DNA of 62,857 nt from Candidatus Nanohalobium sp. (GCA_042217555.1 JBDGSL010000011.1:1-62857); one strand, 5' to 3'; counted from the stretch's first letter, positions 26,962-57,623 are shown. Notes: generated by a model not told the origin, from the letters alone. Numbers and translations: made by a program.

Positions 26962-27117
26962 TGGGTTCGCCCGGATTCGAACCGGGGATCTTCGCCTCTC
27001 CAATACGCTGTATTGGATCCGAGCAACGTCGGAATCCTACGTTGCGTTTGTAAGGGCGACGTCTTAGTCCAAAGCCAACAGAGCTGAACTTTGGATAACC
27101 AACTAGACCACGAACCC
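26962..27117 (-). tRNA. tRNA-Val(TAC) with two introns (~31 nt in the D arm, ~27064-27094; 51 nt at 37/38, 26998-27048)
   Basis: Spliced product GGGTTCG TGGTCTAGTTGGTTATGAC G TCGCC CT TAC AA GGCGA AGATC CCCGG TTCGAAT CCGGG CGAACCC A folds as a cloverleaf; introns are hairpins; first splice register uncertain by 1 nt. Confidence 0.92.
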
Positions 27118-28073
27118 ATGATACGGCACATCAAATTCGTTGCTCCCTGATTTTATAAGGGTGGTTGAACCAGCAGACGGTAGAGTACTGTTCTGTTTGT
27201 AGTAGCGGTATCTTTTAATATTGCGAGCGTTACTGCTTCCCACTTTCTCCATGAATTTGTCCAGTTTTTCTCTACCATAAAGTTGGACTCGGTCCTGAGT
27301 CCTATTTAAAGGCAGGTCTAAAGCGTTAACGGTTTTTCCAAGAAGTTGATGAGAGATTCGTTTTTAGCTGTTATATCCATCATGATACCGGAGTTAGGAT
27401 GCGAGTATACTCCTCCATCTGTGTCGAACAACCCTCTTATCGCCGGTTTGAGAAACTTCTTCTCATGGAGCGTCTCAGGGACTTGGATTTCTTTACCTGC
27501 TTTCTCTCCTTTGGGAAAGCCCTGATTTTTCAAATAAGCCGCTACCTTCCGGCTGTTAAGTATCAAACGTACAACATTCTCCTCACTCTGAAAGTAGATC
27601 TTTGGCTCTATATTGAAAATCGAAACACAAAGTTTCCCTAGATACCTGATGTATTCTTCGTCAAGTTCAGCATTGCCTGTGATACAGAAACCATTCATGT
27701 TAGAGTAAAGGCAGCCGTCACCAAGGAGCGCACCGTACAACTCAGCCAACTCCACATTCCAGTTATCAGGAGTTTTTCCTCTACGCTTTGATTTTGATCC
27801 GCCCTTTCTCTGACCATGCCACAGCGACAAAGTTTGGATTGACAGATCCATTTCCGACATTTCTTGAAGTTTTTCTGCGGCAAACAGCGGAATTGAATCC
27901 GCCTCATTCCTCCACCCCTGACGTGCAGTATAAGTGGAAATATCAAACCTTTGAGCAAAATACCTCCAAGTCCAGCCCTTGTCATTCTTCACATCTTCAA
28001 TCACAGAACCAATATCAGCCGACTCAAATACCGCCCTATCCTCCTTGAAACGACCATCACTGGTTCTATTCAT
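27103..28073 (-). pseudogene. Free-standing LAGLIDADG endonuclease with N-terminal HTH; frameshift at the A5 run (27333-27337)
   Basis: LAELYGALLGDG and IRGLFDTDGG motifs; adding one A extends the frame ~77 codons (..VQLYGREKLDKFMEKVGSSN..) to a TAG inside tRNA-Val. Real lesion or sequencing error. Confidence 0.85.
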
Positions 28074-28093
28074 AATTAACTAGACCACAACTC
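28073..28093 (-). repeat. Degenerate copy of the tRNA-Val 5' end
   Basis: GAGTT-GTGGTCTAGTTAATTATGA vs spliced tRNA GGGTTCGTGGTCTAGTTGGTTATGA; 11-nt exact core. Confidence 0.75.
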
Positions 28094-28132
28094 TTAATTC
28101 CAAAGAATCACCTTTAATGCTACCGGAAACCT

Positions 28133-31100
28133 CTACTCTACCTCTTTTTCCAGTATCGGGTCGTAGACTGTCTCCCCTGAGGAGTAGTAGGGATAGTAGA
28201 CCAGCGAGACTTCTGAGTCCGGGAACTGTTCTTCGACCTGTTCTCTGCTGACTTCTCTGTCGATGAGTTCATCCTTGTTGACATTGTCTTCTCCCATTTC
28301 CAGGTTGAAAAGAGACTCCACTACTTCTGTTCCATCTAGAAGATCTTTTTTCTGCAGTTCTTCGATTTTTGAGGCGACTTTTGAGATACCGACGTCAAGT
28401 TCGTCTACTATCTCCTGTTTGTCTTTTCCCTGCTTCAAGCGCTTGAATACTTTTTCGGTCAGGCCTGAAACCGTTTTCCTCTCCGCTTTCACCTGATCCT
28501 TTACGCCATCAACCAGTTTTTTCTCGTTCAGATCTTCTACGAGGTAGAACGGATAGTATGAACGGTTGAATTTCTCGCCGTACTCGCTTTCCACATCGGC
28601 CAGTTCTCTTCTTGGTTCAAAGAACTTGATCTTCTCTTTTTCTTGGTAGTTGTCTCCTGTCTGTGTCTCACCACCGTGCTTGGATTTTCTGGTCCGGACC
28701 TCGGTCATAACCGGATATTCGTTGCCAAGTGCGAAGCAGACTCCTGGCGGCAGCGACTTGATCATCGACTCAACCTCAGCGTTAATCCCTTCAAAAGACT
28801 TGGATATCGCCTTGATGTCGTTTGGATTGGTTACACGCAGGATGAACTGAGTATTACACTGGGAAAGCACGTTTTTATCGATACGTGCCGGTCTCTGACT
28901 TATTACACCTATTCCCAGACCGAACTTTCTTCCCTCAGACGCTATCTTCCTCATTATATCGTTACTGAGCGTCTGGCCGAATCCCTTCTCCGGTACAAAG
29001 TTGTGCGCCTCCTCCATTATCATGAGGAAGGGCGGAATCCTGTTCTCCTTCCTCAGATCGAAAAGCTTCTTTGCCAGCATGTAAGCCGTCATCTCAGTCG
29101 TATCAGGCTCCACAGCCTTCAAATTAATGATTGTAGCTCGGCCTGGCTCTACAAGATCCTCCAGATCAATCGGATTCGTGCTGAAAAGCCCAGACTCTTC
29201 CAGCTGCTCTAGATAGTTCAGCAGGTTCCATTTAGCGGTCGAATCCTCCTGCGAGACAGCGTCCTCAATGTCCACAAGCGAGTAATCCTCGTCTTTCTCC
29301 TTCAACCGTTTCAAAGCGTTGTAAAGCACCCCCATCTGCGAGTTAGTCAATGAGTCAGGTATGAGAGTCATCAGTTCCTTTTTACCAAGGTTTAGAGAGG
29401 AGAAACGGAGCGGCAACGCATCCTGATTGATGTCGGTATTTGGGGAAAACTCCTTGACCTTGTAGCTCTGCTGCTCCTCATCGTTCTCCGGGTTAGTATA
29501 CTGAAGAGAAGAATACTCACCGTGAGGATCCATGATAAGAACAGGAAAGTCGTCTTCAAGTAATTCCTCTATTATGACACCTGTGAGATAGCTGTTATGC
29601 GATACGATACCTCCGGTACCTGCGACAAAGTTATGATGTTCTCTAACAGTTAAATCGTAGACGTATCCGGAGTAATCTTTTTCCTCTATTGACACTATTT
29701 TATCCCAGTACAGGTCAGATTCTGCGAGGTCGCTGAATAACTGGCTATCAAGTTCTTTGGCCATGGCTGAAAACTTCTCTCTGGAAGGCCTTCTCTCATC
29801 TCTTTCATAGAGAGAAACTAGTGTTGAGTGCGAATCTATCTCCTCCGCCAGTTCTCTCTGTGAAACCCCAACCTTGTTTCTCTCCTTCTTGAGGTACTCA
29901 CCATCAAGAGGCACTACATCCGAGTTAGTGTTCCCGTCTTTTTCCCTAATATATTTCTCCAACTTCTCCTGTTTTCTCTCTATCCCGAAACCTATTTTTT
30001 CGGCGAACTTCTGCATCTGATCGACTCCGCTGATAGCCAACCTGTAGTAGGTGTCTCCTTCGTGATCAGAATTGGTAGCTCTCTTCTCTTTGGATGAGAT
30101 CCTGGAAACTATCCCGAAATCCAGAAGCAGGTAGCTCAACGAATTAATAACTTCTTTGCTCGCAGAAGAAAGAGTTATCTCGTGATCCTCCATACAGCCC
30201 TCACAGTCATAGAAAGTCCTCAAGAACTTTTTCTTTGATTTTTCTGAGGAACGCATAACTATATCCGGAACTTCTTTTTTCCTTGATCTCTGGAGAGTCT
30301 CATACCCCATATCCTCGAGCAAATGCTTCAGGGAGGTCGAGTCGATGTATTCTGCGTTTTCACTCATGCTCCGGGTTTCAAGGCCAAAAAGTTCCTCCGA
30401 CAGAGTCTCGAACCTCTGCATCAACCGATTATCATCATTAGTAAAGATAATTCTGTAACTTCCTTCGGCCTGCTGCTCCGTGCCTTCCGCAATGACCAAG
30501 CTGAGGAATTGTGCCAGTTCAGGAGAAAACATTCCAGGAACTTGAATGCCCTTTGCGTTCATCGATAAAGCCAGGCCAGAGTCCTCATCCGGAACATAGC
30601 CCTGATACTTCCAGTTCTCAATAGTGCTTCGTGAAACCTTCAGCTCTTCCTCCATCATGGAAATCGATTTACCTTCTTCCTCAAGTTCGCTGAACTTGTC
30701 GTATTGTTCCTGGAGATCTTCTCTTCTCTCCGATTCCTCTCCAGCTCTAGACCTAAGTCCTTCAGAAAGCTCCAGACTTTCATCCGGATTTGAAGATATC
30801 TCCCTCGGCACTGCTATGTGCTGACCCTCTTCAATCTCTTCAGAGTTAACAAAGCTGTAATCTTCCTCTGCAACCATCAGAGGATGTTCAGAAGTAACCT
30901 CTATTTCTCTACCAGAGGCAGTCTTCACTTTCAAAACTTTATCAGCTTTTTTACGGTAGGCATAGATCGCATCAGCGTCAGTGAAACTGTAGTTATCATC
31001 CAGAGCCTTCACAGAGCAATAATTCAGAATCCTCAGCTCTTCCTCATCATCCTCTTTAACTACCTGATCCGAACTATCAAATACTTCCTTGATCGGAACC

Positions 31101-31546
31101 GTGCTACCATCAGACATCAAAACATCTGTATCAGGAGTCACACACTTACCGGCGCCTGTCTGTGCTAACACTGCAAAGTGTTTGTAGAAGTCTTCCGGGT
31201 CGACATGGATGTCTATCTCCGGGTTTGTTTCCAGGTTTCCGATAGTCAGGCCTTCATCGTCCAGACCGAGAGTCTCAGAAATAAGTTCCTGGTCTGCCTG
31301 GTAGACGATGCTATCCGGTTCTATTACTCTTCTCGGCGCTTTTGTCAGTCCTTTGTCCCTGTATCCTATTATACTTGCTTTTGCGTATGTTTCTCCACTT
31401 GACTTTTTTGTCACTTCCTCTACCTGGGCGAGAATCCATTCTTCGTTGCTTTTTACTGATACAAAGTCGAATTTCTTTACTTCTTCCGTTGCACGGAACT
31501 TGAAGCTAGAAGTATCGACGTCTCCCTCTATGGTTCCTACCTGCAT
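28133..31546 (-). CDS. HerA/DUF87-family ATPase with intein
   Basis: HAS-barrel N-terminus, HFAVLAQTGAGK|SY, DPHGEY, EEAHNF, EGRKFG, SQRPA; start may be 31567 or 31573. Confidence 0.9.
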   Translation of the reverse strand: MQVGTIEGDVDTSSFKFRATEEVKKFDFVSVKSNEEWILAQVEEVTKKSSGETYAKASIIGYRDKGLTKAPRRVIEPDSIVYQADQELISETLGLDDEGLTIGNLETNPEIDIHVDPEDFYKHFAVLAQTGAGKCVTPDTDVLMSDGSTVPIKEVFDSSDQVVKEDDEEELRILNYCSVKALDDNYSFTDADAIYAYRKKADKVLKVKTASGREIEVTSEHPLMVAEEDYSFVNSEEIEEGQHIAVPREISSNPDESLELSEGLRSRAGEESERREDLQEQYDKFSELEEEGKSISMMEEELKVSRSTIENWKYQGYVPDEDSGLALSMNAKGIQVPGMFSPELAQFLSLVIAEGTEQQAEGSYRIIFTNDDNRLMQRFETLSEELFGLETRSMSENAEYIDSTSLKHLLEDMGYETLQRSRKKEVPDIVMRSSEKSKKKFLRTFYDCEGCMEDHEITLSSASKEVINSLSYLLLDFGIVSRISSKEKRATNSDHEGDTYYRLAISGVDQMQKFAEKIGFGIERKQEKLEKYIREKDGNTNSDVVPLDGEYLKKERNKVGVSQRELAEEIDSHSTLVSLYERDERRPSREKFSAMAKELDSQLFSDLAESDLYWDKIVSIEEKDYSGYVYDLTVREHHNFVAGTGGIVSHNSYLTGVIIEELLEDDFPVLIMDPHGEYSSLQYTNPENDEEQQSYKVKEFSPNTDINQDALPLRFSSLNLGKKELMTLIPDSLTNSQMGVLYNALKRLKEKDEDYSLVDIEDAVSQEDSTAKWNLLNYLEQLEESGLFSTNPIDLEDLVEPGRATIINLKAVEPDTTEMTAYMLAKKLFDLRKENRIPPFLMIMEEAHNFVPEKGFGQTLSNDIMRKIASEGRKFGLGIGVISQRPARIDKNVLSQCNTQFILRVTNPNDIKAISKSFEGINAEVESMIKSLPPGVCFALGNEYPVMTEVRTRKSKHGGETQTGDNYQEKEKIKFFEPRRELADVESEYGEKFNRSYYPFYLVEDLNEKKLVDGVKDQVKAERKTVSGLTEKVFKRLKQGKDKQEIVDELDVGISKVASKIEELQKKDLLDGTEVVESLFNLEMGEDNVNKDELIDREVSREQVEEQFPDSEVSLVYYPYYSSGETVYDPILEKEVE
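29594..31144 (-). mobile_element. 517-aa intein with LAGLIDADG endonuclease, inserted in Walker A
   Basis: GAGK/CVTPDT ... VYDLTV..HNFVA..IVSHN/S; LSLVIAEG and LRTFYDCEG motifs. Confidence 0.95.
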
Positions 31547-31630
31547 ACCCAGATTTTCTGAAGTCATATTCATAAATTCCCGTTCGTCTTCTAGGATGGA
31601 TTTAAGAAGGTAGAGGAGGAACCGGTTTAC

Positions 31631-32080
31631 ATGGAGTTTGAGTATCTGAACAGTCTGGAAGGCCTGCAGGAAGACATCTTCTACCTTGGAGTCATAGCAG
31701 TTATAGTAGTCTTTACCGGCGCCTTCCACAACCTTATAACACCTGACAGCTCTGTCAGGGTCGGATACGTAGAGGTAGAGACAGAATGTACAGGTATAGA
31801 CGCAGGGATATGTCTCGGTATACAGAGACAGGACCACACCACGTACAACTACGACAACTACACAGAAGTCGAGGAAGGAACCGAAAACTTCTACAGAAGA
31901 GTTGAAGCCGAGTTAATGGCCCAGGCCTACAACATCTGCAACACAGACATGAGCGGGATGGAGTGGACGGACCAGGCAGAGTACAGGAATCAGACAGGGA
32001 CAGAATGGCTGGAAAACAAGAACGTTGAGCTTCTTCCATGCGAGAGGACGTTTTACAGGAGCATCAACGCAACAGAGTGA
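31631..32080 (+). CDS. Hypothetical membrane-anchored protein
   Basis: One TM, four Cys, acidic. Confidence 0.7.
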   Translation: MEFEYLNSLEGLQEDIFYLGVIAVIVVFTGAFHNLITPDSSVRVGYVEVETECTGIDAGICLGIQRQDHTTYNYDNYTEVEEGTENFYRRVEAELMAQAYNICNTDMSGMEWTDQAEYRNQTGTEWLENKNVELLPCERTFYRSINATE

Positions 32081-32140
32081 TTTACTCTACGCGGCGAGCA
32101 CTAACAACCATATTTGAATTTCTGTCCGAAGAAGAAGCTA

Positions 32141-42654: not shown

Positions 42655-43440
42655 GTGACAGGCAAGGAGTTGCGTCTGAACCGGATTAGGGACCCTGAGT
42701 CCGGTAACTTTGTCATCGTTCCGATGGATCACGGGGTTTCTGTAGGCCCTGTGGACGGGCTGAGAGATATCGGGTCTACAGTGTCTGAAGTAGCTGCTGG
42801 TGGCGGTGACGCAGTGCTTATGCAGAAGGGCAACTTCAGAGAGCTGCCGAAGGATAGGGCTGACGAACTGGGTTTTATAGCTCATCTGAATGCGTCTACA
42901 GACCTGGGAGAGCCTAACAACAAGGTAGTAGTTGGGAAAGCCAGGGAGGCTTTGAAGAGAGGTGCTGACGCAGTATCTCTCCACGTGAACATAGGTAGCA
43001 GGACGGAGCCACGTCAGTTAGAGGAACTGGGAGAAATATCCAGAGAATGCGACAGGTTCGGAGTGCCTCTGGCAGTGATGACGTACGTGAGAGGCCCTGA
43101 AGTCGAAAACAGTGTGGACAACATAGCTCATGCCACGCGTGTAGGTGCGGAGCTGGGAGCAGACCTGGTCAAGACATCCTACACCGGAAACCCGGAAGAA
43201 TACCGGAAAGTAGTGGAGGGATGTCCCGTTCCTATCGTTATAGCAGGAGGTTCTAAAGCCGATACGAAGAAAGAGGTTCTGCAGGACATCAGAGACGCAA
43301 TGGACATCGGTGTCAGCGGTACAATGATAGGAAGAAACATTTTCCAGCAGGATGACATTTCAGGCATGGTAGAAGCTGTTTCAGGTATCGTACACGATGA
43401 TAAAACCGTTGAAGAAGCAGTAAATAATGCAGATCTATGA
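42655..43440 (+). CDS. 2-amino-3,7-dideoxy-D-threo-hept-6-ulosonate synthase (class I aldolase, AroA'-type)
   Basis: PMDHGVS.GP, HLNAST, ELGADLVKTSYTG, AGG, GRNIFQ; operon context. Confidence 0.85.
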   Translation: MTGKELRLNRIRDPESGNFVIVPMDHGVSVGPVDGLRDIGSTVSEVAAGGGDAVLMQKGNFRELPKDRADELGFIAHLNASTDLGEPNNKVVVGKAREALKRGADAVSLHVNIGSRTEPRQLEELGEISRECDRFGVPLAVMTYVRGPEVENSVDNIAHATRVGAELGADLVKTSYTGNPEEYRKVVEGCPVPIVIAGGSKADTKKEVLQDIRDAMDIGVSGTMIGRNIFQQDDISGMVEAVSGIVHDDKTVEEAVNNADL

Positions 43441-44528
43441 ACAGGATCTGGCTGAAAGCCGACAAGGGAGACTGGGAAGACAGGAAACCGCTGATAACAG
43501 CAGGCCTGGAAAGCGGAGTAGACGCAGTACTGGTCAAAGAAGACGAAGTGGAGAAACTGAAAGAGCTTGGAGACGTCAAAGCCGCAGCATTAACCAGCAA
43601 ACCCGGAGAATCCAGCGCAGACATACCACTCGTGAAAAAAGAGAGAACTGAAGAATCAGAAACTCTGGAAGAACTTAGACAGGTCGAAGAAGGAGGCCTG
43701 TACGTCGAGATAGACGACAAAGAGAAGGAACGGTTTGCAGCCAGTTCAGCAAGCGAAGTAGATAAACTGATTGCAATAGGAGAGGACTGGAAGATAATAC
43801 CGCTGGAAAATCTTATAGCAGATATAGGAGAAGACACAGAACTTGTGGCCGGAGCTAATTCACCTGAAGAAGTAGTTACAGCCTTTGAGACGCTGGAGAA
43901 AGGTTCTGACGCCGTACTTCTTGACGCAGACGCACCCGGAGAAATCAAAGAAGCAGTTAAAAAACGGGATGAAGCTGCTTCAGAAGAGCTTGAACTGGTG
44001 GAGGCCGAGGTAACGAATGTTGAGCAGACTGAAATGGGTGATAGAGTGTGCGTTGACACGTCTTCCATCATGGAGCAAGGTGAAGGTATGCTTGTCGGCT
44101 CCACATCCAGGGCTCTGTTCTTCGTCCAGGCAGAAACCGCAGAATCACCTTACGTGGCTTCAAGACCCTTCAGAGTTAACGCAGGAGGAGTACACCAGTA
44201 CATCCGTGTTCCAGACGGAGAGACCAAATACCTCAGCGAGATAGAGTCTGGAGACAGAGTCCAGATCATCGATGAAGATGGAGAAGCAAGGAAGGCAGTT
44301 GTAGGAAGAGCCAAAATCGAGAAAAGGCCGATGATGCTGATCGAAGCAGAGTACGAAGGAGAAAAAGCCAAGGCACTGGTGCAGAACGCCGAAACCATCA
44401 AACTCGGAACGCCGGAAGGCCCGAAAGCCGTGACAGAACTAGAAGAGAACGATGAAGTCAAGATCTTTTTTGAGGACGTCGGAAGACACTTCGGGAAAAA
44501 GGTAGAGGAATCACTGGTGGAGAAATAA
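43437..44528 (+). CDS. 3-dehydroquinate synthase II (AroB'-type)
   Basis: WKIIPLENLIA, GDRVCVDT, RPFRVNAG, GRAKIEKRP, QNAETI. Confidence 0.95.
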   Translation: MNRIWLKADKGDWEDRKPLITAGLESGVDAVLVKEDEVEKLKELGDVKAAALTSKPGESSADIPLVKKERTEESETLEELRQVEEGGLYVEIDDKEKERFAASSASEVDKLIAIGEDWKIIPLENLIADIGEDTELVAGANSPEEVVTAFETLEKGSDAVLLDADAPGEIKEAVKKRDEAASEELELVEAEVTNVEQTEMGDRVCVDTSSIMEQGEGMLVGSTSRALFFVQAETAESPYVASRPFRVNAGGVHQYIRVPDGETKYLSEIESGDRVQIIDEDGEARKAVVGRAKIEKRPMMLIEAEYEGEKAKALVQNAETIKLGTPEGPKAVTELEENDEVKIFFEDVGRHFGKKVEESLVEK

Positions 44529-45196
44529 TGGACTTCTCAAAGCCAAAGATAGTCGCAAGCTTGACCTCCGAACTTGAAGAAAAAGCAGAGGAAGCCAGAA
44601 AGAAAGGTGCAGACGCCGTCGAAGTAAGGATAGACCTCTACAACGGAGATATAGAGGACATAAGAGATATTTCACTCCCTGTCATCGTGACAAACAGGCC
44701 TGAATGGGAGGGCGGCGAATTTACCGGAGAGGAAAAAGACAGGATACATGAACTGGAAAAAGCAATGCAGTATGCCGACGCCGTCGACATAGAACTGGAA
44801 GCAGAAGAGTTCCACGAAGAAATACTCAGGAAAGCAGAAAAAGAGAAAGTTAAAGTTATAGTCTCCAGCCACGACTTTGAAAAGACTCCAGAAAAACGGA
44901 AGATGGTAGAGACACTGGAATATGCTGGAAGCATTGGAGACGTCGCCAAGATTGCTGTAAAAGCTGAAAAACCAGATGATTCTCTGAAGCTTCTGGAAGC
45001 AGCCGAAGAAGCGGATGTAAAGATTGCAGCTATGGCGATGGGAGAGCCAGGTTCCTACACGCGGATAGTCTCACCGGTGCACGGTTCGAAGATAACATAC
45101 GCCAGCCTCGGAGAGAAGACAGCTCCAGGACAGCTCAGCGTTGAAGAAGTGGCGGAAGCATGGAGAATGTTGAACATCAGGGAGGAGAAAGAATGA
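44528..45196 (+). CDS. aroD: Type I 3-dehydroquinate dehydratase
   Basis: EVRID, R..EGG, SSHDF..TP, AKIA, APGQ. Confidence 0.93.
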   Translation: MDFSKPKIVASLTSELEEKAEEARKKGADAVEVRIDLYNGDIEDIRDISLPVIVTNRPEWEGGEFTGEEKDRIHELEKAMQYADAVDIELEAEEFHEEILRKAEKEKVKVIVSSHDFEKTPEKRKMVETLEYAGSIGDVAKIAVKAEKPDDSLKLLEAAEEADVKIAAMAMGEPGSYTRIVSPVHGSKITYASLGEKTAPGQLSVEEVAEAWRMLNIREEKE

Positions 45197-46479
45197 AAGC
45201 GAAGATAGGGAACTCGGAAGTTTCCGGAACTGTTTCAGCTCCGCCAAGCAAAAGCTATACTCATAGAGCAGTGCTTGCAGGTCTTTACGCGGACGAGCTA
45301 GAAGTTAAAGACCCGTTAATGAGTGCAGATCCGCGGGCCAGTATCAGATGTGCCGAGAGCCTGGGAGCGGAAGTAGAGGAACTGGAGAACAGTCTGAAGA
45401 TTGAGGGTGTCGATGGAGAACCGGAGACACCGGAAAACATACTTGACTGCGGGAACTCAGGGACAACGCTGAGACTTTTCACAGGTGCCGCTGCACTGGC
45501 AGAGAAAGCAGCAGTTCTGACAGGAGATAAAAGCCTGGTGGAGAGGCCTAACAACCCTCTGATCGAGACGCTCAACGATTTAGGTGCTGAGACGTTCTCA
45601 ACGAAATATGATGGTGCTGCGCCGCTTGTCGTCAACGGAAAGATAAGTTCGGGCGACACCTGCATCGACGGCACAGTTTCATCCCAGTTCATATCTTCCT
45701 TGCTGTTCTGCATGCCTTTGACGGATGAAGGCGGACGGCTGGAGATTGAAGGTGAGCTTAAGAGCCGGCCGTACGTCGATATCACGATAGAGGTGCTGGA
45801 GGACATGGGAGTTGAGATCAACGATTACATGGAAGGTTTCGAGATTCCTGGAGGACAGAGCTATTCCTCAGAGGAGTTCCAGGTTCCTGGAGACTTCTCC
45901 AGTGCCTCTTACCCGCTGGCTGCAGGAGCGCTTGCCGGAAAAGTAAGGGTTGAGAACCTGTATCCCAGTGCACAGGGAGACGAAAGGATACTTGATGTGC
46001 TTGAACGTATGGGTGCTGAGGTCGACTGGAATACCAGGGCAGGAGTTGCAGAGGTTTCTGAAGGAGTACTGGAAGGGATCAAGTTTGATGCGTCCGATAA
46101 CCCGGATCTTGTTCCGACTGTAGCCGTTCTTGCGTCCCAGGCCTCCGGTAGAACTGAGATTGTTAACGCTGAGCATCTGCGTTTCAAGGAGACTGACAGG
46201 CTGGAGGCAATGGCTACTGAGCTGTCGATAATGGGTGCTGAAGTGGAGGAAGGTGAGGATTACCTGGTTATCGACGGGGACAGGTCGGAGCTTGAAGGCG
46301 GTGAAGTTGACGGCAGGGATGATCACAGGGTAGTCATGGCACTGGCCCTGGCAGGACTTGCTGCGGAGGGAGAAACAGTTGTTGATACTGCGGAATGTGT
46401 GGAGATCTCCTATCCTGGTTTCTTCAGCGATCTTGAAGACCTGGGTGTTCAGATTGAGGAGGCTGGAAAAATCACTTAA
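45193..46479 (+). CDS. aroA: EPSP synthase
   Basis: PPSKSYTHR, GNSGTTLR, SSQFISS, R.KETDR, DHRVVMA. Confidence 0.95.
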   Translation: MKAKIGNSEVSGTVSAPPSKSYTHRAVLAGLYADELEVKDPLMSADPRASIRCAESLGAEVEELENSLKIEGVDGEPETPENILDCGNSGTTLRLFTGAAALAEKAAVLTGDKSLVERPNNPLIETLNDLGAETFSTKYDGAAPLVVNGKISSGDTCIDGTVSSQFISSLLFCMPLTDEGGRLEIEGELKSRPYVDITIEVLEDMGVEINDYMEGFEIPGGQSYSSEEFQVPGDFSSASYPLAAGALAGKVRVENLYPSAQGDERILDVLERMGAEVDWNTRAGVAEVSEGVLEGIKFDASDNPDLVPTVAVLASQASGRTEIVNAEHLRFKETDRLEAMATELSIMGAEVEEGEDYLVIDGDRSELEGGEVDGRDDHRVVMALALAGLAAEGETVVDTAECVEISYPGFFSDLEDLGVQIEEAGKIT

Positions 46480-46503
46480 CCATGGTACGGACAGATTAAA
46501 ACA

Positions 46504-47664
46504 ATGAACGGAAACAGTTTCGGCAGGCTTTTTCAGGTAACTACGTACGGTGAAAGCCACGGAGAATCAATGGGATGTATCGTAAGCGGCTGTCCCGCAG
46601 GTTTAGAACTTTCAGAAGAGTATATACAGAGGGAGCTTGACAGGAGAAAACCTGGACAGAGCGATGTAACTACATCCCGGGATGAACCGGACGCAGTCAG
46701 GATAAAAAGCGGTTTACAGGACGGATACACCACGGGCACACCTATCGGAATGGAAATACAGAACCGGGACTCGGACTCCTCAAAGTACCACCAGTTCGTG
46801 ACCGCTCCAAGACCCTCCCACGGAGACTACACATACAGCGCGAAGTTCGGAACACGGAACTGGGGAGGTGGAGGCCGATCATCAGCACGTGAAACAGTTA
46901 ACTGGGTGGCAGCAGGAGCAATAGCCAAGAAAATACTTCAGAAACACGGAATCCATGTAAAGGCTCACACCAGCCAGTTAGGAGAGATCAAAGCCGGAGA
47001 AGTCAGATTTGACAACATGACAGAAGAAGCAGAGAAAAACACGGTGCGATGTGCCGACCAGGAAGCCGCAGAGAAAATGGAGGAAAAACTCAGAGAATAC
47101 AAGAAGGATGGAGACTCCATCGGTGGCGCAGTATACTTCGAAGCACAGGGCCTGCCCACAGGACTGGGTGCACCACGTTTCGACGGCTTCACAGCCAGGC
47201 TCAGCCAGGCACTCGGCTCCATCCCTGCAGTCACATCAATAGAGTACGGCCTCGGAAAAGACGCAAGAACAACCACAGGCAAAGAAAGAAACGATGAATG
47301 GAACTTCAACGAAGAAGGAGATCCAGAACCGGTGGAAAACAGTCATGGAGGGATCCAGGGAGATATAACCTCTGGAAAACCGGTTTACGGAGAACTGACT
47401 TTCCATGCACCGACTTCAATACCCAAGGATCAGAAGACCGTCGACTGGGAGACAGGAGAGGAAAAAGAAGTGCAGGTAACCGGCAGACACGACCCATCAC
47501 TCCCGCCAAGAGCAGTACCGGTAGTTGAATCAGTTCTAAGGCTCGTTATACTGGACTTCATGCTTCTGGCAGGAAGGATAAACCCGGACAGGCTCGACAA
47601 CCAGCCAGGAGAATACGATACAGACTACCATCCTTCAAGCCCGCTCAACAACGAGGGAAACTAG
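46504..47664 (+). CDS. aroC: Chorismate synthase
   Basis: TYGESHG, RRKPGQ, PRPSHGD, GGGRSSARET, GRHDP. Confidence 0.96.
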   Translation: MNGNSFGRLFQVTTYGESHGESMGCIVSGCPAGLELSEEYIQRELDRRKPGQSDVTTSRDEPDAVRIKSGLQDGYTTGTPIGMEIQNRDSDSSKYHQFVTAPRPSHGDYTYSAKFGTRNWGGGGRSSARETVNWVAAGAIAKKILQKHGIHVKAHTSQLGEIKAGEVRFDNMTEEAEKNTVRCADQEAAEKMEEKLREYKKDGDSIGGAVYFEAQGLPTGLGAPRFDGFTARLSQALGSIPAVTSIEYGLGKDARTTTGKERNDEWNFNEEGDPEPVENSHGGIQGDITSGKPVYGELTFHAPTSIPKDQKTVDWETGEEKEVQVTGRHDPSLPPRAVPVVESVLRLVILDFMLLAGRINPDRLDNQPGEYDTDYHPSSPLNNEGN

Positions 47665-47701
47665 ATGAAAACTCAATCTTCAACCACAGGTGTACCACAC
47701 A

Positions 47702-48556
47702 ATGGTTAAAACCGGAAAAGCAAAGGCGCCAGGAGCACTCACAATCATAAACGCCATAGCAGCCCTCAGAGGCTCAGCCTTCGCCATCGACCTCTACACA
47801 GAGGCAAAAGTCGAGATAGACAAGGAAAAAGACGGCATAACCGGCGACATAGAAGGTGACAGCCAGGAAGATACCGAAATGATCGAGAGATGCGTACAAC
47901 TCGTACTTGAAGAGTTTGACATCGACGCAGGAGCACACGTAAGTACGTCAAGCGAGATACCTATGGCCTCAGGACTGAAATCCAGCAGTGCAGCAGCAAA
48001 TGCAGCAACACTCGCCACGCTAGACGCAATTGACGAGGAGAAGGATGAGGTAGAAGCCACCAGGATAGGAGTTCAGGCCTCAGTTGATGCAGGAGTAACC
48101 GTGACAGGCGCCATGGACGATGCCGCAGCATCAATGCTTGGAGGCGTAGTCATGACCGACAACTCAGAGAACAAGCTGGTAAAACACGAGGACTTCGACT
48201 ATCACTGCGCCGTATACATACCGGATGAGAAAGCACGGAGCGTCGACACCGATATCGACAGATCCAAGCTTGTGGACACTGTAGTTGACCAGGCGTTCGA
48301 GAACGCAGTTGAAGGAAACTACGAGGCGGCAATGACTACTAACGGGTTCGCGTACTGCGCAGCACTGGACTTTGAGGAAGAAATAATCATGGAGGCGCTT
48401 GAGCACGCCCCAGCAGCCAGTCTGAGCGGTACAGGACCTTCATTCGGCGCGATAGGAACCAGGGAAGAAGTCGAGAAGGTCGCCGAGGAGTGGCGTGAAA
48501 GGCCTGGAGAAGTCCTTATACTTGAGACAGTTAATGAAGGAGGTGAGAAGCTGTGA
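47702..48556 (+). CDS. aroK: Archaeal (GHMP-family) shikimate kinase
   Basis: IINAIA, SEIPMASGLKSSSAA, TGA.DDA.AS, SGTGP. Confidence 0.93.
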   Translation: MVKTGKAKAPGALTIINAIAALRGSAFAIDLYTEAKVEIDKEKDGITGDIEGDSQEDTEMIERCVQLVLEEFDIDAGAHVSTSSEIPMASGLKSSSAAANAATLATLDAIDEEKDEVEATRIGVQASVDAGVTVTGAMDDAAASMLGGVVMTDNSENKLVKHEDFDYHCAVYIPDEKARSVDTDIDRSKLVDTVVDQAFENAVEGNYEAAMTTNGFAYCAALDFEEEIIMEALEHAPAASLSGTGPSFGAIGTREEVEKVAEEWRERPGEVLILETVNEGGEKL

Positions 48557-49368
48557 AAACGTTCGGACTGATCGGCTGGCCGGTAGAACACTCTTTCTCT
48601 CCGGAGATGCATCACGCAGCCTATGAAGACCTGGAAATGTACGCTAAGTACAGTCTCTACCCTGTGAAAGAGGAAGATCTCGCCGAAGCAATAAAGGGAG
48701 CTAGAGCGCTAGGCATAGAAGGCCTGAACGTGACAGTACCACACAAGGAAGCAGTCAAGGATCTGGAGTTTGTCAAGGTTGACCCGCTGGCCGAGAAGAT
48801 CGGAGCCGTCAACACACTGGACTTCACTGAAGACGGCATCAAAGCCTTTAACACGGATGCGGTCGGCGCCAGAAAAGCACTGGAAAGAGAAGGAGTGGAC
48901 ATAGAGGGAAAAAAGGTTACAGTAGTCGGTGCAGGAGGCGCATCCCGGGCCATCAGCTTTGAACTCGCCGATAAAGGAGCGGAAGTAAAGATAGCTAACA
49001 GGACGGAAGAAAAAGCCTATGAACTTGCGGAAAACGTCTCAAAAGTTGGGAAGGCCTCCGGACACGGGCTTGACGGACTTGAAGATCTGGTAGCCGACTC
49101 CGATATACTCGTTAATTCTACAAGCGTCGGCATGAAGGAGAATAAGACAGTAGTGCCGAAAGAGTATCTTCACCCGGATCTCGTGGTCTTTGATGCAGTC
49201 TACAACCCTCTTGAAACCCGGCTGCTGCGTGAGGCGAAAGAGGTCGGCGCCGAGACGGTTGATGGCGCGTGGATGCTCGTGTACCAGGGTGTGAAAGCTT
49301 TCGAGATATGGACAGGTAGGGAGCCGCCGGAGAACGAGATGAGAGAAGCACTGATGAGGGAGCTTTAA
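48553..49368 (+). CDS. aroE: Shikimate dehydrogenase
   Basis: HSFSPEMH, NVTVPHK, GAVNT, NTD, GAGGAS, MLVYQG. Confidence 0.95.
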   Translation: MKTFGLIGWPVEHSFSPEMHHAAYEDLEMYAKYSLYPVKEEDLAEAIKGARALGIEGLNVTVPHKEAVKDLEFVKVDPLAEKIGAVNTLDFTEDGIKAFNTDAVGARKALEREGVDIEGKKVTVVGAGGASRAISFELADKGAEVKIANRTEEKAYELAENVSKVGKASGHGLDGLEDLVADSDILVNSTSVGMKENKTVVPKEYLHPDLVVFDAVYNPLETRLLREAKEVGAETVDGAWMLVYQGVKAFEIWTGREPPENEMREALMREL

Positions 49369-51577: not shown

Positions 51578-51643
51578 TATTTCGAGTATTCTAAAACCTT
51601 CTAGAGCTTCTGCTATAAAAATTTCCAGACCGGTGATTTCTTC

Positions 51644-53362: not shown

Positions 53363-53497
53363 ACAGGGAAAAACTTTTTCGGACTCTTTTCCCCCTATTT
53401 CTGGCCTTCAGAAATTATTCGTGAAGGTAAAAACCTGGCTCCTGTTTCTTTGGAAAATGCAGGGGTTGATAAAAACCTGGAGGTTTCAAACTGTTTC

Positions 53498-54502
53498 ATG
53501 GCCGAGTGCAGTAAGTGCGGGAAGGAGACGATGAGCTTCACCTGCCGTTACTGCGGTGAAAAGTTCTGCTCTGAGCACCGGCTGCCTGAAAACCATGACT
53601 GTGAAGGATTGGAGTCCGGAAAGAAAGAGGAGTATTCCTCCAGTTCCGGAAATAAGGATGAGAAATGGTTTGATGACAGGTTCTCCAACCGTAAAGAAGA
53701 TACCAGGACAAGTAAAGAGTTTCAGAGACCTGGCTTTCTAAACGAATCAGCAAGGATACTGAAGTCGAATATCACGTTGATCATAATAGGGTTAACTGCT
53801 TTCACCTACATGCTGCATGAGACCCTGCCAGTTGTAAAGGATTTTCTTACTCTTTCACCTGCCCTTACAGATGCAGCAGTTCAGGCAACAAACCAGGCCG
53901 TAGCAGAGTACAGTAACAGTACCGGTCGGAGCCTTCCCACTCCATTCATAGATAAGACTGTCTTGGAGGCACCCTGGACCCTGGCGACAGTGATGCTGGT
54001 TCACGCCAACTTTTTCCACTTCCTGGCGAACATGGCAACGTTCTACTTCTTCGGTACGGCCGTGGAGAAAGCTGTAGGAGGCGTCAAGATGCTGAAGATG
54101 TACATCCTCTCCGGGCTGGCAGCAAGCATCGCAGTAGTTGCGTTCAGAAACCTGCTTTTCCAACTCTACGGCCCTCTACACGGTTCTGTAGCGTTAAGCC
54201 CTATAGTCGGTGCTTCAGGAGCAGTAGTGGCAATGCTAGGTATAGTTGCCATGCTTTATCCGGATGCAGAAGTACTTCTGTACTTTTTCATACCGATGAA
54301 GATAAGAACCGCCGTCTACCTGTTCGGAGGAATGGAGACCTTCAACCTGTTTGCAAAAATATTGGGAGTCCATCTGCCGTTAATAGGTGGTTTTGCTTCC
54401 TCAGCACACCTGGCCGGACTAGCAGCAGGACTTTACTACGGTAAGAAACTTCAGGGCAGTTACAGCAGGAGGACAGCAGCTTTTGACCCTCTAGGCTACT
54501 GA
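53498..54502 (+). CDS. Rhomboid protease with N-terminal AN1 zinc finger
   Basis: C..C...F.CRYCG..FC.EHRLPE.H.C; H..FFH..NM, GASG, AHLAG. Confidence 0.93.
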   Translation: MAECSKCGKETMSFTCRYCGEKFCSEHRLPENHDCEGLESGKKEEYSSSSGNKDEKWFDDRFSNRKEDTRTSKEFQRPGFLNESARILKSNITLIIIGLTAFTYMLHETLPVVKDFLTLSPALTDAAVQATNQAVAEYSNSTGRSLPTPFIDKTVLEAPWTLATVMLVHANFFHFLANMATFYFFGTAVEKAVGGVKMLKMYILSGLAASIAVVAFRNLLFQLYGPLHGSVALSPIVGASGAVVAMLGIVAMLYPDAEVLLYFFIPMKIRTAVYLFGGMETFNLFAKILGVHLPLIGGFASSAHLAGLAAGLYYGKKLQGSYSRRTAAFDPLGY

Positions 54503-54503
54503 T

Positions 54504-55043
54504 TCACAGTTTTTTGTGCTCTACCTCGTAGTAAGTAACCTCGTTCTCCGTGTCGTTTACGGCCCAGAGCATGGATGCTCTGATGTTGTTAGCAAGTCTT
54601 ACCGCTCTGCTCATTTCCTGGAAGCTGAGAGTATGGTTCTCCGGAACAGCGTGGACAACATACTTGGTATGTTCTCTTTCCCGTTTGTCACCGCTCTTGT
54701 ACGGGTTAACACCTCTAGGATAGACTCTGAAATGCGCACCAAACTTGAAACCTGATTTTACGATATAACCTCTTTCACGCAGATCACTGTACGCAGGATA
54801 CTTGTAAGAAAACTCGTCATCTATCTCATCAAACCTTCTATAGGCTTCGTCACGGCCCATCTCGACGCCTTCAACCCGGAAGACCGTACCTCTGTCCATC
54901 AGGTGAAGAGCCTCACACGGAGAAAGCAGGAGAGAACCATCCTCCATGAACTTACCGTAGTACTTTTCATCATGTATCTCCTCCGCCTTTTCCTCTTCAA
55001 AAACCTTCACACCGTTCTCCGTAAACTCCGCTTCCACTTCCAT
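54504..55043 (-). CDS. endA: tRNA-splicing endonuclease
   Basis: EALHL, YSDLRERGYIVKSGFKFGAHFRVY..H, VTYY. Confidence 0.93.
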   Translation of the reverse strand: MEVEAEFTENGVKVFEEEKAEEIHDEKYYGKFMEDGSLLLSPCEALHLMDRGTVFRVEGVEMGRDEAYRRFDEIDDEFSYKYPAYSDLRERGYIVKSGFKFGAHFRVYPRGVNPYKSGDKREREHTKYVVHAVPENHTLSFQEMSRAVRLANNIRASMLWAVNDTENEVTYYEVEHKKL

Positions 55044-55093
55044 AAAGAACAAGAGGGACAGAAAAACTTTTTCTTGTTAGTGAAAAAATCCAC

Positions 55094-55789
55094 TCAGAAT
55101 CTGGAGAGATCTTTCTGATTTGACTCATCTATTATCCGCTGGGCTGTACTCCAGCTCTCTCTGGTCTCCTCCGGCAACCTACCCTTTTCCTGAAGATGTT
55201 TTTTAAGGAACTGTATTGTCGGTTTGTCATGCGGGTATCCTGATTTGAAGTCGTATCCGTACTTCCTGTGAAGCTCTTCCACATGACTCTCTCGGGCTGA
55301 CTTCGCCACGATAGATGCGGCAGACACGATAGGAAAAGTTTCGTCTGCGCCGTGCTCAGCAGTAAACTCCAGATCTATATCAGTCTTCATCAGTTCCTGA
55401 ACCTTTCCTATGAAACGGTCGCCGTCAGGCTCCGGCAAATCCATGAAGACTTCATCCGGCTCCGCCCTGTCAACCACCTCGGCAAAACCCTTCAACTCTA
55501 TCTCGTTCAAGCTCATCACGTCCCTAAGATCATCGATTTTGGAGGCTGTGAACTCAACCAGAAACACCTCACCGAGATCACCCAGTTCCCCCCTCAATCT
55601 CTCCCTCTTCTTATCCGACAGTTTCTTCGAATCCTTGACTCCTAGTTCCTCAAGCTTTTCTAAATCTTCTTCAGTGGCCGTGAAGCCGCCGATGAACATT
55701 GAGCCAATGACGGGGCCTTTAGGCTAAACAAGACCCGGAGATCCTGTCTATCTGCCTGCCTCGTCAATGCCCAGAATTTTTTTCGTCAC
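55094..55789 (-). CDS. rnhB: Ribonuclease HII in two exons (55752-55789 and 55094-55718)
   Basis: GTG start; removing 33 nt restores ILGIDEAGRGPVIG; DSKKL, VSAASIVAK, SGYPHD, RESW; 220 aa. Confidence 0.92.
55719..55751 (-). other. 33-nt BHB-type pre-mRNA intron in rnhB
   Basis: Two in-frame TAG; AGGC/GCCT 4-bp helix with AGA and AAA bulges and an ~11-bp intron stem. Confidence 0.88.
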
Positions 55790-56796
55790 AATACAATCAC
55801 CTGTTTTCCCGTTTCAGTAGTTGTCCACTCATGATCCTTCTTTTTTATAAGCCCAAGTTCCTGAAGCCGATGGAGATTCTTGTAAGCTGAATTATTGGTA
55901 ACAGAGAAATGCTCAGATATCTGACCTACCTTCAGATATTGATTTTCAAGCAGTTCCAAGTAGTTACTCTTCACATCTGAGATTATCACCGAGTTCTGAT
56001 TGTCTCTAATCCAATATGTCTGGCTGCCTGCTTTGTAATTGGTTACTTTTCCTTCTTTCTTCAGCTCCATAAGTACATCACAGAGCCGTGCCTGAGACCT
56101 GTCGAAAACCTCAGCCAGTTCTGTAGTCTGGTACGGCTCAGTCAGCTTTTCATAAGTATTCTGCTTCAATTCACCCTTCAGATAGTGTTCCTCCTGAAAA
56201 CTGCTGTAAATCTGTTTGAACTTTTCCCTTTTTCTTGGATGTAGCTTACAGATCTCATATTCTTCGAATATGTCCCAGTTGGGCTTCTTAGTGACGACAT
56301 AAGACCTTTCTTCGGGCCTGAAAAAGTAACTAATTCCTAAATGATCCATCATTTCCTCCAGAAATTCATCCCTTTCTCCCTGAGAAATCCTCAAACGCCT
56401 AGACTTCCTGGCACCCTCATAGACACTTCCTTCACCCGCAAAGAAACCCTGAAGAATATACGAGTACATATCCGGATCATCCTTTACCCTTGAAACCTTT
56501 TCCTTCCACTCCTCCACCAAGTCTCTGGACGCTAGACGGATGATATAGTAGGTCTGAGTGGCTCTATCGTCAGTGTACAGAGAAGTCTCAGCCCCATCAA
56601 ATGTATTGTAATCAGAGCCCTCACTCGGACGATACACATAAAGCCTGTAATTATCAGCATCAAAAAGACTTTGAAGCTTTCTGTAGAATAAATCCACTAA
56701 TTCAAAGCAGCTGTTAGTAAAAGTAATCTCAGCAATAGTTTTAGTATCTCCCTCAGCCAACCAAAGTCCTACACACCTAGCTAAGTCTTTATCCAT
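55786..56796 (-). CDS. Free-standing LAGLIDADG endonuclease with C-terminal wHTH domains
   Basis: VGLWLAEGD and LQGFFAGEGS motifs; stop overlaps the rnhB start (GTGA). Confidence 0.88.
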   Translation of the reverse strand: MDKDLARCVGLWLAEGDTKTIAEITFTNSCFELVDLFYRKLQSLFDADNYRLYVYRPSEGSDYNTFDGAETSLYTDDRATQTYYIIRLASRDLVEEWKEKVSRVKDDPDMYSYILQGFFAGEGSVYEGARKSRRLRISQGERDEFLEEMMDHLGISYFFRPEERSYVVTKKPNWDIFEEYEICKLHPRKREKFKQIYSSFQEEHYLKGELKQNTYEKLTEPYQTTELAEVFDRSQARLCDVLMELKKEGKVTNYKAGSQTYWIRDNQNSVIISDVKSNYLELLENQYLKVGQISEHFSVTNNSAYKNLHRLQELGLIKKKDHEWTTTETGKQVIVL

Positions 56797-56918
56797 GTAC
56801 AATACCTCTTTTCTAGAGTTATAAAGCCTTTTATCAAGTTATAGAGCGCCGAGTTCTACCGCCTCTACCAATATGAATGGTTTAAAAGAGTAAATGCCGA
56901 CTTTATGATTACAATCAT

Positions 56919-57063
56919 AGCGGGGTAGAGCAGCCAGGAGTGCTCGTCGAGGTGTTCCGTTCCGTGCGGTTCGCCGCGAACGGCTCATAAGAACACTCCA
57001 TTTTAGCGATTAAACCTTATCTGAGACACCCGGAGGTCGCTCGTTCAAATCGAGCCCCCGCTA
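56919..57063 (+). tRNA. Initiator tRNA-Met(CAT) with two introns (56950-56981 in the anticodon stem; 56990-57027 at 37/38)
   Basis: Spliced AGCGGGG TA GAGC AGCCAGGAGT GCTC G TCGGG CT CAT AA CCCGG AGGTC GCTCG TTCAAAT CGAGC CCCCGCT A; A1-U72 and three G-C pairs mark the initiator. Confidence 0.92.
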
Positions 57064-57071
57064 TATTACGT

Positions 57072-57623
57072 TTACTTGACCTTTGGCTTATTTTTAGCTA
57101 TTTCATAAATCTCTTCTTTGTCGTTTATTGACGGAACAGTTAGATAGTATGAATCATCACAGTTAGGACCATTAAGATTAGATTCAACCTTAATAGTTTC
57201 AAACAGTTTTTGAAGGTCTTTTATACCTGATTTATTCATCGACTTTATTTTAAGCCTGTTATACGTTGCTTCGTGATAGCCTTCATCGCGGACAAAGGCT
57301 CTGATCCATTCAATCTTCTTTTCAAAATCCAGATTAAATATCTTTTCTGGTATTCTCCACTCTTCAGAAGAAAGTTCTCCAAATTTACGCTCCAACTCAT
57401 CTGCTATCCTTATTGATTTCACTCTAACCTCATCTTCACGTTCGTACATTTTGACATCGAAGAGCTCACCCATATCATCCCTAAATTGGTCCAAGTTATC
57501 CTCATCGACATTAGTGTAGAGCACCATAGCTCTTCTATTACGATCAGACTCCGAAGTTTCATATCTAGTTATACATCCGTCACCACAAAGCCTAGCATGA
57601 ACTCTAACAAGCTCTACTTTCAT
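57072..57623 (-). CDS. Free-standing LAGLIDADG endonuclease
   Basis: HARLCGDGCI and WIRAFVRDEG motifs; AT-rich. Confidence 0.85.
   Translation of the reverse strand: MKVELVRVHARLCGDGCITRYETSESDRNRRAMVLYTNVDEDNLDQFRDDMGELFDVKMYEREDEVRVKSIRIADELERKFGELSSEEWRIPEKIFNLDFEKKIEWIRAFVRDEGYHEATYNRLKIKSMNKSGIKDLQKLFETIKVESNLNGPNCDDSYYLTVPSINDKEEIYEIAKNKPKVK

Follow-up and report, generated by a model that had tools for sequence, protein, structure and literature searches.

A LAGLIDADG Gene and a Bulge-Helix-Bulge Intron of rnhB as a Candidate Collaborative Homing Unit in a Nanohaloarchaeal Genome

In phages, a free-standing homing endonuclease can take part in collaborative or trans homing with the intron of a neighbouring gene when that intron has no functional endonuclease of its own, and the reports on this subject describe F-CphI with psbA of cyanophage S-PM2 and mobE with the nrdB intron of T4 (PMC2988022, PMC2790892, PMC6083498). 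In this study, we analysed a 62,857-nucleotide (nt) stretch of DNA from Candidatus Nanohalobium sp. (GCA_042217555.1 JBDGSL010000011.1:1-62857), and this whole stretch is referred to as the window. In the window, a free-standing LAGLIDADG gene, which we call HE_B, directly precedes rnhB, the gene of RNase HII, and rnhB is interrupted by a 33-nt insert of the bulge-helix-bulge (BHB) type. We consider it fairly probable that HE_B and this insert form a single mobile cassette, which would be an archaeal counterpart of phage collaborative homing. Two further free-standing LAGLIDADG genes of the window, HE_A and HE_C, adjoin the genes of tRNA-Val and the initiator tRNA (tRNA-iMet).

As far as these phage reports go, the two situations are alike in that a free-standing endonuclease adjoins a conserved gene bearing an intron, that both are inherited together, and that the target is thought to be the insertion site. 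On the other hand, the phage side is described there with a self-splicing group I intron and HNH or Endo VII nucleases, whereas the rnhB side has a presumably protein-spliced BHB intron of 21-106 nt on a cellular chromosome, a LAGLIDADG protein with two winged helices and putative cleavage activity, and hosts in several archaeal phyla. The endonucleases I-DmoI and I-Tsp061I of archaeal rRNA BHB introns share the fold, the kind of intron and the archaeal host with our case. However, their genes lie inside the mobilised intron, whereas HE_A, HE_B and HE_C lie outside, beside the interrupted gene. The BHB intron of the cbf5 pre-mRNA in Crenarchaeota concerns a different gene and different phyla, and the abstract describing it reports no endonuclease partner. 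Among open-access titles and abstracts, with subscription journals and supplements outside the scope of the search, we found no rnhB intron and no free-standing endonuclease paired with a BHB intron.

How BHB introns arrive at new sites is an open question, especially for the odd tRNA positions and the few protein-coding cases. Large-scale intron gain in the tRNAs of Thermoproteales has reportedly been described without a mechanism at the DNA level. In this respect, the rnhB locus is a concrete and testable unit, with one endonuclease family, one fixed codon, an essential enzyme gene, dozens of carriers and intronless sisters. With its predicted intron, rnhB joins the short list of archaeal protein-coding genes carrying a BHB intron, and gene callers will truncate RNase HII in the intron-bearing genomes.

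The interrupted rnhB gene and the HE_B protein

The rnhB locus of the window contains the following features.

54504..55052, minus strand: EndA, tRNA-splicing endonuclease of 182 amino acids (aa) with a single alpha-type subunit (Pfam tRNA_int_endo and tRNA_int_endo_N)
55094..55717, minus strand: rnhB exon 2, from GPVIGSMF to the stop codon (Pfam RNase_HII from profile position 15)
55718..55750, or 55719..55751 when the cut rule is applied between AG and A, minus strand: rnhB insert of BHB type, 33 nt, with two in-frame TAG codons (placed by fold, cut rule and covariation)
55752..55789, minus strand: rnhB exon 1, 38 nt, GTG start, encoding MTKKILGIDEAGR (reading of the sequence)
55786..56802, minus strand: HE_B, two-motif LAGLIDADG protein with two C-terminal winged-helix domains, 336-338 aa (weak Pfam matches to LAGLIDADG_3 and TrmB)

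A preliminary description of this DNA had placed an intron 38 nt into rnhB and had stated that all three free-standing LAGLIDADG genes touch intron-bearing genes. Both statements held, as the 33-nt insert follows the 38-nt exon 1, and the contacts consist of a 15-nt overlap with tRNA-Val, a GTGA overlap with rnhB and an 8-nt gap to tRNA-iMet. The three LAGLIDADG genes are mutually unrelated, and each of them adjoins an interrupted gene. This adjacency is non-random, because the orthologues retain the identical neighbour (HE_A in 4/4, HE_B in 78/80 and HE_C in 6/6 resolvable cases). At the junction of HE_B and rnhB, the TGA stop codon of the former overlaps the GTG start codon of the latter, and a GTGA or ATGA overlap recurs in many related loci.

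The insert interrupts the conserved RNase HII motif between DEAGR and GPVIG. In its minimum free energy fold, a central helix of 4 bp is joined through a 3-nt bulge on the 5' side (AGA) to an intron hairpin of 11 bp, and the bulge on the 3' side measures 3-4 nt. We applied the BHB cut rule, in which a 4-bp central helix is flanked by 3-nt bulges and the cut is made two bases into the bulge on each strand. In the rnhB insert, the central helix AGGC/GCCT paired at 4/4 positions and the intron helix at 6/6, with the bulges AGA and AAA, and the cut leaves G-R-G in frame. All five inserts discussed here (one in rnhB, two in tRNA-Val and two in tRNA-iMet) satisfied this rule exactly at the positions that yield the mature sequence; the central helix was complete (4/4) in four of them and reached 3/4 in the insert at the anticodon loop of tRNA-Val.

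For comparison, 80 loci were fetched from public genomes via HE_B homologues, and more were fetched later; the compared genomes are nearly all metagenome bins, and the host names in their titles may be wrong. Among the distinct rnhB genes, 62 contain an insert, always at the identical codon, and 37 do not. The insert length varies from 21 to 73 nt in the 62 genes, with 17, 19 and 26 of them falling into the three residues modulo 3, and an insert of 106 nt was read later. Since these lengths are not multiples of three, the insert must be removed from the RNA rather than translated by read-through. Removal restores DEAG(R/K)G-P-V-I-G in 62/62 genes.

Single-sequence folds agree on a BHB-like structure in nearly all insert-bearing genes, and the pairing covaries. 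With fixed anchors in the 62 genes, the central helix was paired in 86.7% of cells compared with 66.7% after shuffling of partners, and the base of the intron hairpin in 85.5% compared with 52.9%; in both cases, 0/1000 shuffles reached the observed value. Two pairs of the central helix are variable; the Ala and the Gly codon contribute their wobble bases to them, and both sides vary. One of these pairs occurs as A-T (16), C-G (15), T-A (9), G-T (7) and G-C (3), and the other as T-G (18), C-G (13), G-C (12) and A-T (8). Based on this comparison of sequences, the rnhB insert is predicted to be a conserved BHB intron.

The enzyme presumed to cut the BHB inserts is EndA. In the majority of Nanohaloarchaeota loci its gene follows rnhB, whether or not HE_B and the insert are present, indicating that this neighbourhood is ancestral in the phylum. 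An alpha4-type EndA with an extra loop has been tied to disrupted tRNA genes in DPANN lineages (PMC5829648).

HE_B has the motifs CVGLWLAEG and GFFAGEG, and the acidic residues E15 and E122 are invariant in an alignment of 25 diverse homologues. In HE_A, HE_B and HE_C alike, two LAGLIDADG helices ending in an acidic residue are found. The AlphaFold2 model of HE_B has a mean confidence (predicted local distance difference test, pLDDT) of 93, and its best fold matches in the PDB are E-DreI, bI3 maturase, I-DmoI, I-Tsp061I, WhiA and PI-PfuI. Against I-DmoI, the template modelling (TM) score by target is 0.55-0.62, and the model shows the tandem alpha-beta-beta-alpha-beta-beta-alpha fold. The fold matches and the invariant acidic residues mark HE_B as an endonuclease-like LAGLIDADG protein. 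We found 323 homologues of about 340 aa with 40-45% identity across DPANN phyla and Nitrososphaerota. At first, HE_B was read as a conserved housekeeping protein on the basis of these homologues and many invariant residues; clade scans overturned this reading.

Linkage of HE_B with the rnhB intron and a recombination tract

In DPANN archaea and Nitrososphaerota, rnhB lies directly downstream of HE_B in 78/80 loci. HE_B itself is sporadic. It occurs in 5/70 Nanohaloarchaeota genomes and in 0/3 congeners, full-length in 5/101 genomes of a Woesearchaeal order, and in 1/151 genomes of the class to which a Nitrososphaerota carrier belongs. One nanohaloarchaeal copy has an in-frame TAG codon and one is missing its middle. 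This combination of sporadic distribution and decaying copies is that of a homing endonuclease. The rnhB gene was present in 69/70 Nanohaloarchaeota and in 94/101 genomes of the Woesearchaeal order.

The rnhB intron follows HE_B closely. Among Nanohaloarchaeota, it was present in 5/5 genomes with HE_B compared with 1/62 resolvable genomes without it, and here two genomes truncated at the site and one without an rnhB match were left out. In 61 of these 62 genomes the N-terminus is contiguous, as read base by base in 26 and deduced in the rest from the alignment start and the lack of stop codons. In the Woesearchaeal order, the N-terminus of rnhB was disrupted in 4/5 genomes with HE_B compared with 2/88 resolvable genomes without it, both of the latter being read directly. 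In total, 35 Nanohaloarchaeota and 86 Woesearchaeal genomes were scored by alignment start, a procedure that an in-frame insert free of stop codons could escape; the matched rnhB DNA in these genomes spans about 645-672 nt, which leaves no space for a hidden insert. Combining both groups, the intron is found in 9/10 genomes with HE_B compared with 3/150 without it (Fisher p = 1.4e-11, uncorrected for relatedness and to be taken as a guide only).

The three exceptions are orphan introns at the same codon without HE_B upstream, with lengths of 30 nt (G005), 106 nt (G075, locus L157) and 28 nt (G084, locus L158). The 106-nt intron is almost entirely A+T, and an unrelated gene stands in front of the one in G005, which is located as follows.

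L141 905-1000: orphan rnhB intron of G005

We aligned the spliced rnhB of the window with those of the congeners G048 and G049 and of the carriers G067, G051 and G016. Over its first 20-30 codons, the window gene is 83-89% identical to G067 and 60-65% identical to G048, while from codon 41 onwards G048 is closest, with 80-89%. With G067 as the carrier, informative sites in the first 93 nt favour the carrier over the sister G048 by 24 to 8, and those in the remainder favour the sister by 105 to 46 (p = 5e-6); with G051, the 5' tract favours the carrier by 17 to 3 and the remainder the sister by 154 to 41 (p = 2e-8). Each of these Fisher values was taken at the best of 90 breakpoints tried, with a 5' tract of 66-93 nt. 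When 29 genomes were ranked over a 45-nt segment around the insertion site, the top three were intron carriers (G005, G067 and G051, with 0.89-0.91) and the congeners were near the bottom (0.62-0.64); G048 is nonetheless the best match downstream (0.85). These alignments indicate that the window's rnhB is a mosaic with a recombination tract around the intron. The flanks are collinear with the congeners, with tRNA-iMet upstream and the 3' part of rnhB, EndA and a rhomboid gene downstream, indicating that the cassette is located in the native chromosome.

Weighing the cassette against other explanations

What is expected of a collaborative or trans homing cassette is that its parts are inherited together, and here the adjacency in 78/80 loci, the intron in 9/10 compared with 3/150 genomes and the recombination tract agree with this. 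For rnhB, the proposal of the preliminary description that an endonuclease and a micro-intron act as a unit is thus supported by the counts, the sporadic distribution, the decay and the tract; for tRNA-Val the counts are undersized (p = 0.5), and for tRNA-iMet, where 4/6 genomes with HE_C have an intronless gene, the proposal fails. The co-conversion check that it had suggested was run on genomes and returned the tract around the intron of the window's rnhB.

If HE_B and the intron form such a cassette, the course of events may be as follows. HE_B would cut cassette-free rnhB within the coding sequence of DEAGRG, the active-site motif of RNase HII. Repair from a carrier would then bring in HE_B together with exon 1, the intron and a stretch of exon 2 some tens of bases long; the co-inheritance and the recombination tract speak for this step, and the direction of transfer would be from carrier to cassette-free gene. 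In the carrier, the intron would split the presumed target and thereby protect the carrier allele. From the mRNA, the intron would be excised by EndA and the ends joined by an RNA ligase, so that the reading frame is restored. At a later time, the endonuclease gene could decay or be deleted, leaving orphan introns such as those in the three genomes described above.

Several observations count against the cassette or weaken its support. The target of HE_B could be located elsewhere than at the insertion site. The genomes are related to one another, and the Fisher values therefore make the linkage look stronger than it is. HE_B is intact beside an intronless rnhB in 12/80 loci, mostly in Pacearchaeota, and in G142, indicating that the endonuclease can persist independently of the intron. 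The motif codons in 12/12 of these loci (L005, L009, L010, L011, L013, L017, L024, L025, L027, L061, L063 and L065) differ from the usual spliced junction, as they encode DDSGRG or DEAGKG or use CGN arginine codons, and such codon changes may give protection in place of the intron. Over the 45-nt tract at the insertion site, the intronless G038 reaches 0.87, near the carriers, and the ranking of the 29 genomes gave no unique donor for the 5' tract of the window's rnhB. The outer exon-exon helix is without covariation in the 62 inserts (70.2% paired compared with 69.5% after shuffling), indicating a relaxed BHB form that consists of the central helix and the intron helix.

In a tree of 70 loci and the window, obtained by a quick search, HE_B groups by host lineage. 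The Nanohaloarchaea rows fall into one clade (support 100), and so do the Nitrososphaerota rows (support 94), whose clade lies among DPANN rows. The host label changes 23 times in the tree compared with 31.3 times in shuffled data, and the terminal branches are long (median 0.46). Between carriers, the identity of HE_B (56-64%) is about that of RNase HII (54-66%). Since the tree follows host groups with long terminal branches, the HE_B family appears to be old and mostly confined to lineages. Taken alone, the tree would fit an old vertical descent with many precise losses as well as repeated homing within clades.

The main rival, to which we assign a small probability, is that HE_B is a domesticated LAGLIDADG and winged-helix partner or regulator of rnhB, comparable to WhiA in bacteria, with a regulatory intron and neither part being mobile. 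It would account for the overlap of stop and start codons and the constant gene order in 78/80 loci, for the two winged-helix domains and the presence of WhiA among the fold matches, for the many invariant residues and the intact state of most HE_B copies, and for a tree that follows host groups with HE_B kept in 12 intronless loci. However, it is hard to reconcile with the absence of HE_B from more than 90% of related genomes (65/70, 96/101 and 150/151) while rnhB is kept. The decayed copies, the recombinant rnhB around the site and the invariant catalytic acidic residues of HE_B also argue against it, and WhiA is not known to have these catalytic acidic residues. About equally improbable is the explanation that there is no functional link, and that endonucleases and BHB introns settle independently at very conserved sequences such as tRNA genes and active-site codons. 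This explanation fits both tRNA cases well: at least three types of endonuclease adjoin intronless and intron-bearing tRNA-iMet alike (p = 0.19), 6/10 loci with the D-arm intron of tRNA-Val have no HE_A, a LAGLIDADG gene on another contig abuts metG with no intron seen, and 22/29 tRNA genes of the genome are interrupted anyway. It does not fit rnhB, where the intron and HE_B are rarely apart (9/10 compared with 3/150) and the same codon is used in 62/62 genes.

We regard it as very unlikely that the rnhB insert is not spliced, in which case the gene would be broken, would start at an internal ATG, or would be read by ribosome hopping as in gene 60 of phage T4. The bypass in T4 gene 60 uses matched take-off and landing codons around a gap of fixed length. 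There, mobA and gene 60 provide a precedent for a free-standing endonuclease that travels with an insert other than an intron. The insertion of mobA into T4 gene 60 is named in PMC2988022. In contrast to what an unspliced insert predicts, both exons are open and conserved in 62 genomes, and covariation backs the pair of BHB helices. With an internal ATG start, DEAGR would be missing from the motif, and with it presumably the catalytic aspartate of RNase HII. An AGA codon precedes the insert in 44/62 genes, and the insert itself ends with AGA in 12/62, so matched codons are not the rule; the gap is not of fixed length either, as it varies between 21 and 106 nt.

Beyond the rnhB cassette, a more general reading can be considered, which we hold to be rather doubtful. 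According to it, LAGLIDADG endonucleases, whether free-standing or intron-encoded, would be a general engine that plants BHB introns in archaeal cellular genes, including non-canonical tRNA positions and mRNAs; the rnhB unit would be a working gene drive that has passed between DPANN lineages and Nitrososphaerota, and micro-introns would be the remnants after loss of the endonuclease. If true, the gain of archaeal tRNA introns would thereby receive the DNA-level mechanism that it has lacked so far.

HE_A, HE_C and other LAGLIDADG genes beside tRNA genes

The window is contig C3 of the genome G000, which comprises 1.31 Mb in 88 contigs with 46% G+C. With introns allowed, ARAGORN found 29 tRNA genes in the whole genome, of which 22 bear introns of 33-179 nt, and the label "intron-bearing" accordingly carries little weight for a tRNA. 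At default settings, ARAGORN found zero tRNAs across the window, and the sole Rfam match in the window at the gathering score was tRNA-Leu at 58680-58830. The two multi-intron tRNAs of the window were mapped by hand through comparison with relatives, and removal of their inserts gives the 74-75-nt genes of the relatives. Together with HE_A and HE_C, they are located as follows.

26962..27117, minus strand: tRNA-Val(UAC) with two inserts (weak match of its tRNA-like ends to a transfer-messenger RNA model; mature form taken from single-insert relatives)
26997..27047, minus strand: tRNA-Val insert 2, 51 nt, at 37/38 or 38/39 (cut rule)
27064..27094, minus strand: tRNA-Val insert 1, in the D-arm, 31 nt (central helix 4/4, intron helix 6/6)
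27103..28073, minus strand: HE_A, free-standing two-motif LAGLIDADG gene (Pfam LAGLIDADG_3, E 6e-6)
56919..57063, plus strand: tRNA-iMet(CAU) with two inserts (mapped against the intronless gene of 75 nt in relatives)
56950..56981, plus strand: tRNA-iMet insert of 32 nt at 29/30 (central helix 4/4)
56991..57028, plus strand: tRNA-iMet insert of 38 nt at 37/38 or 38/39 (central helix 4/4)
57072..57623, minus strand: HE_C, minimal two-motif LAGLIDADG endonuclease-like protein, 183 aa (Pfam match E 0.0044)

The introns had been described as lying at unusual sites, but one insert in each tRNA may be at the canonical 37/38.

HE_A is split over two frames (27318-28073 and 27103-27363) by a one-base shift at an A5 run, and this frameshift in a homopolymer may be an assembly error. 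Its translation contains the motifs LLGDGCL and LFDTDGG, and the second frame reaches 15 nt into tRNA-Val at its 5' end. Orthologues are found in 4/70 genomes: they are intact in G068 and G067 (about 324 aa in a single frame), frameshifted in the window, and interrupted by four stop codons in G049. Each of the four copies extends 12-15 nt into the 5' end of tRNA-Val. The gene order of HerA, HE_A, tRNA-Val and PTH2 is conserved apart from HE_A, which is an insertion of about 1 kb, as the congener G048 has 47 nt in its place. The D-arm insert is present at 10/13 resolved tRNA-Val loci, and HE_A accompanies it at 4/10 loci with the insert and at 0/3 loci without it (p = 0.5). HE_A and the D-arm intron may be a second unit of the kind proposed for rnhB. 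The counts fit an invasion followed by loss of the endonuclease, which is possible but unproven at numbers too few to decide.

HE_C converges on tRNA-iMet, with the gap of 8 nt lying at the 3' end of the tRNA. It has the motifs CGDG and RDEG, and 19 homologues all keep the residues D15, D113 and E114. Searching the PDB by sequence produced no useful match for HE_C, and the fold comparison was used instead: the AlphaFold2 model (pLDDT 92) shows the tandem fold and matches I-DmoI with a TM score of 0.69-0.74 at a root-mean-square deviation of about 3.5 Å. HE_C orthologues occur as 7 copies in 70 genomes, 3 of them broken, and 6/6 resolvable orthologues stop about 4-25 nt short of the tRNA-iMet 3' end. 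However, tRNA-iMet is intronless beside HE_C in 4/6 genomes, including G050 with an intact copy, and introns occur without HE_C too. Because HE_C orthologues adjoin intronless tRNAs as well, a link between HE_C and the tRNA-iMet introns is not supported by this comparison. When any endonuclease neighbour is counted, 5/8 intron-bearing and 5/17 intronless initiator tRNAs have one (p = 0.19).

The initiator tRNA is also a hot spot of LAGLIDADG genes other than HE_C. Among its neighbours is a two-motif type of 215-240 aa, present in at least G047, G048 and G062. Matches of this type were seen near rnhB in G026 and G029, not mapped to tRNA-iMet. In G048 (L082), an intronless tRNA-iMet stands between two LAGLIDADG frames.

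L082 182-829, plus strand: two-motif frame, 215 aa, overlapping the 3' end of tRNA-iMet
L082 953-1339, minus strand: single-motif frame, 128 aa, 52 nt upstream of the 5' end of tRNA-iMet

The relative G043 provides an intron-internal case like that of I-DmoI. In its tRNA-iMet (L144:2060-2586, minus strand), an intron of 452 nt is located at 37/38 or 38/39 and contains a LAGLIDADG frame of 145 aa with a single motif (LIDGEGS). The 3' end of this intron resembles the 38-nt tRNA-iMet insert of the window, and the same genome has an HE_C orthologue 10 nt from tRNA-iMet (L101 and L144). To our knowledge, a LAGLIDADG gene within a BHB intron of an archaeal tRNA has not been reported.

A fourth free-standing LAGLIDADG gene of the genome lies on contig C75.

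C75:1913-2878 (L155), plus strand: LAGLIDADG protein of 321 aa, two helix-turn-helix repeats at the N-terminus, located 10 nt in front of metG

The adjoining metG reads through and no insert was seen in it, and Rfam gave no matches around the C75 gene at E <= 0.1. Considering their positions, HE_C and the other LAGLIDADG genes near the initiator tRNA seem to behave as ordinary free-standing homing endonucleases, independently of introns. In this respect, HE_C and the gene upstream of metG resemble the T4 seg and mob genes with their intronless homing (PMC2988022): on both sides, the genes lie between conserved genes and do not need an intron, some overlap the end of the neighbour, and expression is probably from the neighbour's transcript. 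Unlike the seg and mob genes, HE_C and the metG-upstream gene belong to the LAGLIDADG family and reside in a cellular archaeal genome. Free-standing LAGLIDADG genes, which are seldom discussed in archaea, cluster in this genome near tRNA-iMet, tRNA-Val, rnhB and metG.

A LAGLIDADG_3 scan of the genome gave 21 matches, the majority within frames of 768-1821 aa. These large frames, about a dozen, are probably inteins, and HerA is the one that was checked. The HerA gene and a further tRNA gene of the window belong to the context, outside the cassettes.

28133..31837, minus strand: HerA-type ATPase with an intein containing LAGLIDADG and helix-turn-helix (HTH) parts (Pfam Intein_splicing, DUF87, LAGLIDADG_3 and HTH_3)
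58680..58830, plus strand: tRNA-Leu(CAA) with an anticodon-loop intron of about 70 nt (Rfam)

A 109-aa frame at 58641-58970 that overlaps tRNA-Leu(CAA) is probably spurious. The window also contains a complete shikimate cluster of the archaeal type (42655-49368, plus strand), which is sizeable for a genome of 1.3 Mb; its members are a DeoC-family aldolase, DHQS II, DHQase I, EPSP synthase, chorismate synthase, a GHMP-type kinase and shikimate dehydrogenase.

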